Shown here one piece after another: positions 37,763-38,532 of a stretch of 54,653 nt of DNA. The stretch spans positions 1 through 54,653 of the IMG/VR virus record IMGVR_UViG_3300042698_000041. One strand, written 5' to 3'. Origin of the DNA: a virus. Below the pieces are notes generated by a model. The model was not told the DNA's origin, did not search any database, and saw only the letters and a list, made by a program, of their open reading frames with translations. Position 1 is the stretch's first letter, and each line of letters starts with the position of its first letter. Made by a program: the position numbers and the translations under genes.

Positions 37763-38532
37763 AATTCAACTTAACTGACTATTGATTGGGAACCTGGCTC
37801 AAACGCTTGGGGAGCCAGAACGGGCAGAGGGTTAGCAAGATCGGCTTCGTACGCCAACGCGGAGCTTCAGTGGGTTTCCTCGGTCCACCAGAGACTCCTG
37901 TCGTGATCGGCTGGAGAAGTGCCCCCATGCCCAAATCCCTGGGAGTGCCATGGGGGCACACTAAGACGTAAGCCTACGCAACCGAGCGAAAGCTCAAGGT
38001 GGCTACAGCCCTGACGTAGTTGCGGCAATAGGGGTGCAAAGAGACATGGCGTGTGACAGCGCAAGGATATGGCATGTCTTGGGTACGGACTCCACTGTCA
38101 CACAAAGACTCCTTGGGGGTTCAGCTTGCGTGTCCTTAGTTTTAAGACTGTGGTGTACCCCAAGGATTCCGGTATCTTGCACGAGGGTGCCGAGACACAA
38201 ATATGTGAGTATGGAAACCCTGCGAGGGGACCACGGACGCGCGCTTAAAAGTCTCAAGCCGGTGGCCCCGGGCTGGTGACACGAGGTAAAACTAATCCGT
38301 CCGGGGCTGCTCACACATTGGAACGTGAGGATGCCTGGCACCCAGGCGGTCGCCCCAGTGGCCACTGGGCATCGTGGAGAATGACGGAGATCCTTCAGTG
38401 AAGCGATGAAGACCGATAAATAGATGTTAAGGCCCATCAGCCGGTACCAGGCCATGTGGGAAACGGCATGAAAAGGAAACCGGACCCCCCTAGGGAAAGG
38501 GCCGGGCATCCTCACCCAAGGAGAGGAAAGCT
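37763..38532 (+). ncRNA. large structured non-coding RNA candidate (class unknown)
   Basis: No credible ORF. Perfect helices at 37919-29/37949-59 (11 bp), 38110-18/38158-66 (9 bp) and 38325-35/38505-15 (11 bp). Pseudoknot topology at 38041-48/38073-80 with 38051-59/38095-38103. Confidence 0.45.

Follow-up and report, generated by a model that had tools for sequence, protein, structure and literature searches.

A modular structured RNA family, absent from Rfam, in one clade of phages

We have analysed positions 37763-38532 of IMG/VR record IMGVR_UViG_3300042698_000041, a whole metagenomic phage contig of 54,653 bp (JGI 3300048539, Ga0502594_05598842), which is called the window below. The stretch starts right at the end of the last of several tandem Y-RNA-like units, which follow the gene of a Ro60-like TROVE protein, and stops at the ribosome-binding site (RBS) of a 37-aa open reading frame (ORF). 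The RNA that it encodes belongs to a modular structured family of one phage clade, not represented in Rfam, and the region is very probably a functional structured RNA. Its parts are named here, from 5' to 3', module A, the hairpin block, module M2 and domain C (Table 1), and related contigs are given by our labels (L066 and so on). An initial annotation had proposed a candidate large ornate non-coding RNA, of the GOLLD or ROOL kind or of a new class. A non-coding structured RNA on the + strand of a phage, beside tRNAs, was borne out, and so was the option of a new class, since no known family was matched; a single RNA of 770 nt was not, the modules being self-closed and having different phylogenetic distributions.

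No match to the region was obtained by BLASTN against GenBank phages; in 65 TROVE-linked loci of IMG/VR and JGI metagenomes, BLASTN and nhmmer found matches to the tRNA and Y-like parts alone. The neighbouring vWA protein had no relatives in IMG/VR and its exact look-up returned no record, while exact look-up of the TROVE protein returned the source contig and one 100% identical Logan contig only. Scans with exact sequence blocks, five in IMG/VR and one in 185,579 representative bacterial genomes, gave chance matches only, judged as such by covariance models or by reading, and a six-frame concatenated pseudo-protein query, with X at stops, had no match. The homologues were obtained by using a spurious minus-strand ORF as search query, and then through close relatives of TROVE. 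Since gene callers tend to place junk ORFs in long non-coding DNA, the "homologues" of a spurious ORF mark homologous DNA. This search led to the ENA soil contig L066, and the spurious ORF of L066 itself led to four more Logan/ENA sequences on five contigs, L083-L087 (L084 and L085 being the same). A TROVE search lists about 80 relatives at 58-72% identity, several of them on contigs of about 54 kb, and five of these (L089-L093), chosen solely by a TROVE similarity of 65-72%, were analysed. In all five, domain C is on the strand of the TROVE gene and tRNA-Gly comes next, and the TROVE relatives at 62-72% identity all have domain C about 1.5 to 2.7 kb past the end of the gene.

Covariance models of domain C were made from two sequences (R1) and from ten (R2). 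Their scores are 156-228 bits in the 10 full-length distinct contigs and about 15 bits on the opposite strand, and an eleventh contig (L087), in which the domain is cut off by the contig end, scores 71.5 bits. All 11 related contigs examined have domain C. So far as can be judged from these data, the family is confined to one clade of uncultivated soil phages, the Ro60 of which is, among named organisms, closest to an actinobacterial one.

In domain C several helices meet in a junction, which is closed by P1, a helix of 15 bp, plus 4 bp beyond a 3-nt bulge. Over ten sequences, hardly any change is seen in roughly the first 55 and the last 35 nt of the domain, and two internal hairpins are of variable length; about 100 near-invariant nucleotides are found in junctions, loops and helix P2. 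P1 is paired in 150 of 150 cells, with occasional G.U pairs, and covaries at three positions (A-U/G-C, G-C/A-U and C-G/G-C/U-A/U-G), and the UUGG/CCAA pairing prolongs it past the bulge, which is conserved. The P2/P2a hairpin is invariant with two fixed G.U pairs, and P3 closes a variable insert, in which the window and L066 differ by a 13-nt indel. The stem beneath the GGUACC loop covaries (G-C, C-G, A-U and G.U) and the loop, 7 nt with a 6-nt palindrome, is invariant; another hairpin has a double compensatory change in L093. The initial annotation had made its proposal depend on covariation of the helices, and they do covary: in domain C, for example, 98.5% of cells are paired and eight pairs have changed on both sides. 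Each covariation measure of domain C lies above all 500 shuffles and all slid controls, and its fold z-scores are -3.9 and -5.1.

Five helices had been quoted in the initial annotation. Four of them are exact in Watson-Crick terms (37919-29/37949-59, 38110-18/38158-66, 38325-35/38505-15 and 38051-59/38095-38103), and the helix 38325/38505 extends to 15 bp; the remaining one, 38041-48/38073-80, has seven Watson-Crick pairs and one G.U pair. The claimed density of long helices was confirmed by counting perfect stems within 220 nt against 500 dinucleotide shuffles: five stems of at least 9 bp were found, compared with 0.45 +/- 0.68 in the shuffles, and two of at least 11 bp, compared with 0.04 expected. 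The fold z-score is -1.9 on the + strand and +0.1 on the - strand for the whole region, -3.9 and -1.5, respectively, for the 3' 205 nt, and between 0 and -1.6 for the 5' parts, and the stability thus lies mostly in the last 205 nt of the stretch. The RNA is assigned to the + strand because of the G.U pairs and because fold energy and model score both favour that strand over the other.

Explanations other than RNA were also weighed. The absence of a credible ORF, claimed at the outset, holds: the sole long ORF is 38003-38515 on the - strand, 170 aa, which has no Pfam or PHROG match and no RBS, the sequence upstream of its start carrying the complement of an RBS instead (CCTCTCCTT). A protein-coding gene, this ORF or another, or a decayed gene, would explain the ORF annotations that several contigs have here, but the called ORFs fall on differing strands and frames in the related contigs. 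The "homologues" of ORF 38003-38515 match over about 40 aa only, at varying positions in ORFs of varying extent; this similarity overlies invariant RNA blocks, the starts differ between the ORFs, and one is in another frame. Matches of about 40 residues that shift and change frame are a pattern of non-coding conservation. The search for a conserved coding frame, by which the initial annotation could have been overturned, found stops in every frame in most of six homologues and no frame consistently open, and the indels among the homologues, of 13, 1, 2 and 4 nt, are not multiples of three. Coding is excluded for 37763-38532, and a gene of any kind is barely credible here. An element acting at the DNA level, such as a miniature inverted-repeat transposable element (MITE) or a recombination or packaging site, the inverted repeats of which merely resemble RNA helices, is very improbable. 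It would fit the 15-19 bp terminal inverted repeats around a unit of about 200 bp and the mosaic exchange of the segment between phages, but there is one copy per genome and no other in the window, exact-block scans did not find it in the 185,579 bacterial genomes or in IMG/VR, its position and orientation relative to the tRNAs are constant, and the conserved G.U pairs of P1 and P2a would turn into A.C mismatches at the level of DNA or on the opposite strand.

Comparison with Rfam, which the initial annotation had recommended, gave no match: cmscan with permissive filters over 37700-38660 found none in 37763-38532 even at E<=10, and the homologous stretches of five related phages (L089-L093) had none at E<=0.5. 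Membership of GOLLD, ROOL or HEARO therefore fell away, with no covariance-model match in the stretch or in L089-L093 at these respective thresholds; the models of OLE and raiA likewise gave no match in either, and GOLLD at its gathering score had no match anywhere in the window. The by-eye judgement that the stretch is not tmRNA, RNase P RNA or a group I/II intron was upheld, as there was no covariance-model match and no tmRNA call by ARAGORN. YrlA had no match at E<=10 in 37763-38532, and ARAGORN found no tRNA inside it. Several other candidates were tried and rejected. A likeness of GGGAAAGGGCCGGGC to CR-I of RNase P RNA was seen by eye and had no model match, and the same holds for short motif resemblances to cobalamin and ZTP riboswitches. 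For a retron or omega RNA, no reverse transcriptase was noted, and TnpB was not specifically searched for. A MITE was rejected on the single copy per contig at a fixed syntenic position and on the chance matches of the genome and viral scans.

Upstream of domain C, the pairing of module A is supported in the same manner: 10 of 29 pairs have changed on both sides and 88.5% of cells are paired, above all 500 shuffles and the slid controls. Its helix Pb has 9 bp (GGGCAGAGG with CCUCGGUCC). L089 has an additional, weakly matching copy of module A at 10724-10846 (nhmmer E about 1e-6), past tRNA-Gly and beside an odd tRNA-like call at 10848-10944. L089 is also the one close relative for the hairpin block; window 37518-38194 and L089 9515-10186 have 87.6% identity, with 97% in module A, compared with 72% at the nucleotide level between the TROVE genes. 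Among 83 predicted pairs of the hairpin block (37920-38195), comparison with L089 shows seven two-sided changes, nine one-sided changes and no broken pair. In hp1 the stem is invariant and the tip remodelled, and a related hairpin occurs in L066, L090 and L091. The predicted three-way junction is nearly invariant, with two one-sided changes that keep the pairing. In hp3 the tip stem CUUA/UAAG is replaced by GUCG/CGAC in L089, and hp4 has two compensatory pairs.

The H-type pseudoknot claimed within the hairpin block is a candidate structure. Its first hairpin, 38043-48/38073-78, has four consecutive compensatory pairs between the window and L089, but the second helix, 38051-59/38095-38103, is invariant in L089 apart from one change, which breaks outer pairs. 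The motif CAAAGACUC (38103-38111) comes after the strand 38095-38103. Before the same (C)ACAAAG motif, a different helix is found in other phages, GCACCGU/ACGGUGC in L066, L086 and L090 (ACAAAGACU) and UACCGU/ACGGUA in L084 (ACAAAAGCU, a C-G to U-A switch), and the second helix is therefore positionally conserved. That it forms a pseudoknot in the lineage of the window is plausible as a structural model. Each hairpin of the block has a CAAAGAC-like motif before it, and a (C)AAAG(A/C) motif followed by a hairpin occurs three to four times in several homologues; a genome-wide search for CAAAGACT gave 43 matches for 33.5 expected, a number reached in 3 of 100 shuffles, with no clear enrichment outside the RNA. 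Module M2 has 85% identity to L093 9092-9205 and 92% to L089 9396-9448, both located elsewhere in the array, and 6 of its 32 pairs are compensatory over three sequences.

Whether these modules make one RNA or several was examined from their arrangement. Module A, the hairpin block and domain C are collinear in 6 of 10 phages and span about 440 to 740 nt there, A and C included, and the stretch upstream of domain C varies from 140 to 750 nt among phages. Three phages (L083, L084 and L092) have domain C and no A; in these, domain C is preceded by a small membrane-protein gene or by just 140 nt. On the + strand of 36699-39172 there is no terminator-like site and no excess of promoter-like sites. 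Since module A begins 5-25 nt after the preceding Y-like unit and no terminator is seen, the modules and the tRNAs are most likely made as one precursor. In our reading, domain C is the functional core, to which the other modules are accessory. That the whole of 37782-38522 acts as one molecule is rather doubtful. Its stronger form is unlikely: one giant ornate RNA of about 740 nt, homo-oligomeric like GOLLD and ROOL, with the 5' modules as variable peripheral domains. Such an RNA would agree with the collinear modules, with the lack of space for promoters between them, with the similar pattern of GOLLD (conserved 3' part, variable 5' part, phage tRNA islands), and with the invariant palindromic GGUACC loop and 16-nt palindrome of domain C. 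It agrees poorly with the phages that have domain C and no A, with the differing positions of M2 in L093 and L089, with the z-scores near zero of the 5' parts, and with the closure of each module on itself; a search for conserved pairing between A and C returned only G-rich, non-covarying matches.

We read the region, with slightly more confidence than doubt, as a modular family of non-coding structured RNAs, stable and acting in trans, an invariant surface of which binds a partner. The modules would be transcribed together with the array, in a long rightward unit of Ro60 gene, Y-like units and tRNAs, and would be freed by the host enzymes responsible for trimming the tRNAs and tRNA-like units on either side, with RNase P acting at tRNA-Gly. 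The long terminal helix would make the 3' domain a stable RNA, and the invariant single-stranded blocks and loops would be its binding surface in trans. The long terminal helix and the tRNA setting suggest a stable RNA that is released by tRNA-processing enzymes, and the site at which the upstream RNA is processed at its 3' end is probably set by tRNA-Gly, which comes after domain C in 10 of the 11 contigs having the domain. Two partners are proposed, each tentatively and at a similarly low probability: another copy of the RNA itself, by analogy with other palindromic loops and through GGUACC, or the phage Ro60 particle encoded 2 kb upstream. More speculatively, domain C, with or without the 5' modules, could represent a new class of phage RNAs that self-assemble (through symmetric contacts between molecules, made by the GGUACC loop and CCCAGUGGCCACUGGG) and/or a new Ro60 partner without a tRNA-like domain, and would serve for remodelling host RNA metabolism or evading RNA-targeting defence; this is unlikely as a full account.

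Several points weigh against this interpretation. R1 and R2 had no match in 57 more distant Ro60-phage loci. The sequences are few (6 to 10) and related, so that the shuffle controls overstate significance, and mosaic exchange of the RNA island contributes to the high identity to L089, which is not due to selection alone. Most helices of domain C, P2/P2a included, are invariant and rest on energy and consistency, and a constraint other than pairing could keep them so. The Ro-binding motif CGAA/GNCGAA is not conserved in domain C, being present only in L066, L086 and L090, in the internal loop of P3. GGUACC never varies, which leaves the kissing-loop idea without covariation support. We infer the transcript ends and the stability of the RNA. 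An RBS and a small ORF directly after domain C in 7 of 10 phages fit a leader role too.

Such a role, in which domain C would be a cis-acting 5' leader of ORF 38533-38646 that stabilises the mRNA, controls translation or belongs to a type I toxin-like peptide, is improbable. Structured 5' ends do stabilise mRNAs, the RBS is 3-8 nt past P1, and ORFs of the MDGELKAIL family are present in the window, L066, L084, L086 and L087 and, as called genes of 39 aa, in L090 and L092. The ORF is missing, however, in L083 and L089, where domain C is intact, and the peptide is much less conserved than the domain, so that domain C is unlikely to be a leader and nothing else. The RBS lies outside the structure, no terminator-like site follows on the + strand, and a P1 of 15 bp is too stable for a switch. 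In L084 (reverse complement, about 3295-3308), the motif CCGGGCAUCCUCAC of the 3' strand is repeated past the peptide gene, a pattern that would be expected if this gene was an insertion between the tRNA-Gly leader CCCAACCGUGCGAUU and domain C. A non-canonical Y RNA, in which the bulged terminal stem of domain C, and perhaps of module A, binds the Ro60 ring and the rest tethers another factor, is a shade less probable than the leader. Domain C starts 2057 nt past the TROVE stop on the + strand, and 1.5 to 2.7 kb past it in the relatives (L083 and L089-L093 alike); A and C share UUGG, (G)AAC, a helix and CCA(A/G), with a conserved 3-nt bulge in the terminal stem; and there is precedent for a phage Ro60 that binds more than one Y-like RNA (PMC12135203). 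On the other side stand the missing YrlA match (E<=10), tRNA-like domain and conserved CGAA of domain C, the canonical Y-like units already present upstream, and the more distant Ro60 phages that have no domain C. The trans-acting structured RNA with domain C as its core remains the reading that we prefer.

Table 1. Features of the RNA island in the window, with positions in the 54,653-bp contig
Feature	Position	Strand	Remarks
Ro60/Rsr-like TROVE protein gene	34669-36261	+	Pfam TROVE E 6e-19; PHROG 850 "RNA-binding protein"
Five to six tandem Y-RNA-like units	36840-37763	+	repeated 5'/3' half motifs; sub-threshold YrlA matches
Module A	37782-37924	+	nhmmer E 1e-28 to 1e-36 in window, L089, L090, L091, L093 and L086
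Module A, structure	UUGG 37786-89 / CCAG 37888-91	+	enclosing Pa 37794-37800/37812-37818 and Pb
Hairpin hp1	37919-37959	+	11-bp perfect stem, inner 3-4 bp tip
Predicted three-way junction	37965-38040	+	GAAA-capped hairpin 37981-38000 and hairpin 38020-38039; RNAalifold, window and L089
Hairpin 38043-48/38073-78, loop strand 38051-59 complementary to 38095-38103	38043-38103	+	possible H-type pseudoknot
Hairpins hp3 (38110-18/38158-66) and hp4 (38167-78/38184-95)	38110-38195	+	tip of hp3 remodelled; stems kept
Module M2	38204-38315	+	self-closed, about 112 nt; closing helix 38204-11/38308-15
M2, inner helices	38218-21/38226-29; 38265-71/38301-07	+	hairpin; 7-bp helix
Domain C	38318-38522	+	about 205 nt, in every relative; 81% identity to L066
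Domain C, closing	UUGG 38318-21 / CCAA 38516-19; P1 38325-39/38501-15	+	3-nt bulge between them
Domain C, P2/P2a hairpin	38341-38369	+	holds 16-nt palindrome 38354-69, CCCAGUGGCCACUGGG
Domain C, P3	38370-75/38403-08	+	tip variable
Domain C, invariant AAGACCRAUAAA	38409-20	+	
Domain C, hairpin with loop GGUACC(A)	loop 38443-48	+	
Domain C, further invariant blocks		+	AAAAGG and CCCCUAGGGAAAGGG
37-aa transmembrane ORF, family MDGELKAIL...	38533-38646	+	RBS 3-8 nt past domain C
tRNA-Gly(UCC)	38654-38728	+	ARAGORN and Rfam

The window is identified as a phage by its large terminase, portal protein, Mu-F-like head protein and D5-type primase. From 34669 rightward, all tRNAs and all called genes other than spurious ORFs are on the + strand, and the order of the island from 5' to 3' is the TROVE gene, small membrane ORFs, the tandem Y-RNA-like units and 10 or 11 tRNAs, with a HAD_PNKP-domain protein (polynucleotide kinase-phosphatase-type) encoded further right. 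The RNA array is accordingly 3' of the TROVE gene and on its strand. In the Y-like units, repeated 5' and 3' halves surround tRNA-like cores, the 5' half being GAUCUCAGGUGCGnAG..CGGnUACUUC and the 3' half CCGAG..CCUUGAUCUC. The best YrlA match in this array has 31.9 bits at 37161-37271 for a gathering score of 69, and comparable weak matches occur in all five related phages L089-L093; the tandem units look like a divergent Y-RNA subfamily. One unit, 37486-37625, has tRNA-Phe(GAA) embedded at 37531-37604 between the complementary ends GAUCUCAG and CUGAGAUC. Together with its leader this unit has 76-86% identity in L011, L036, L084 and L086, and it may be a Y RNA with a complete tRNA as its core.

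Past tRNA-Gly, the stretch 38729-39326 is poor in ORFs and rich in stems, with four perfect stems of at least 9 bp in the tile from 38886, and 38911-39013 has 82% identity to the syntenic stretch of L084; it is probably a further structured RNA module. Unusual tRNAs were also found, at 40006-40078, 42162-42233 and 39327-39402; among them, ARAGORN gives two aberrant anticodon loops ("ct" and "ca"), and one is a tRNA-Phe with anticodon AAA. In this clade, the tRNA array is a mixture of structured RNAs, of which there are at least four kinds. Away from the island, the overlapping 770-nt tiles from 31186 and 31571 (31186-32340, near the terminase gene) each have three perfect inverted repeats of at least 11 bp within 220 nt, the maximum in the window. 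In L092 (2196-5182), two HNH_3 endonuclease ORFs adjoin a shortened terminase ORF of 360 aa, which has only a weak match to the terminase C-terminal domain, and the terminase gene may be interrupted there.

Large or highly conserved structured RNAs without assigned function are rare. GOLLD and ROOL, from phage tRNA islands, have recently been shown to build RNA-only cages. The present family provides a defined RNA of about 205 nt that can be synthesized, with natural size variants of about 440 to 740 nt, at a fixed place in an island that combines a Ro60 homologue, Y-like units, tRNAs and a HAD_PNKP protein. This RNA could be used to address what else phage Ro60 particles work with, and how common self-assembly is among phage RNAs. 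If it does self-assemble or act as a Ro60 partner, it would work together with the Ro60, the Y-like RNAs, the tRNAs and the RNA-repair enzyme of the same phage.

Among known systems, MALAT1/mascRNA (RF01684) offers an analogy only: RNase P cleavage at a tRNA-like element makes the 3' end of the upstream RNA. Here too a structured RNA lies upstream of a tRNA, but a small ORF stands between domain C and the tRNA in most phages. Bacterial Y RNAs are encoded on the Ro60 strand, at a distance of up to 4 kb (PMC4201824), have the Ro-binding motif GNCGAAN0-1G / CGAA (PMC4201824, PMC12135203), and more than one Y-like RNA can be bound by one phage Ro60 (PMC12135203). Like the Y RNAs (YrlA, RF02553; Yrl1 and Yrl2 of the Thermus phage phiLo), domain C is less than 4 kb from Ro60 on the same strand, its 5' and 3' ends form a bulged terminal stem, and there are several RNAs per locus. 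Unlike them, it has no tRNA-like domain (T arm and D arm), no conserved CGAA/GNCGAA and no YrlA match, and the true Y-like units at this locus are the upstream tandem repeats 36840-37763. ROOL is an ornate RNA of phages and prophages, found near tRNA islands, with pseudoknots and no known protein partner (PMC12286853). The present family shares with ROOL (RF03087) the location in phages near a tRNA island; it differs in secondary structure and has no covariance-model match, and it comes from soil phages of a Ro60-encoding clade, whereas ROOL is known from rumen and Firmicutes phages. In GOLLD the 3' region is conserved and the 5' region variable, and the RNA lies near phage tRNAs, sometimes with tRNAs in its linker (PMC12286853). 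With GOLLD (RF01998) our family has in common, as a resemblance only, a structured phage RNA beside a tRNA island (here tRNA-Phe and tRNA-Gly) with a constant 3' part and a variable 5' part; it departs from GOLLD in a conserved core of only about 205 nt, in modules that occur independently and in the lack of a GOLLD model match. Palindromic loops mediate homo-oligomers in OLE and GOLLD (PMC12286853), and of the self-assembly seen in OLE, GOLLD and ROOL the present family has the prerequisite only, an invariant GGUACC palindrome in a 7-nt loop on a covarying stem.

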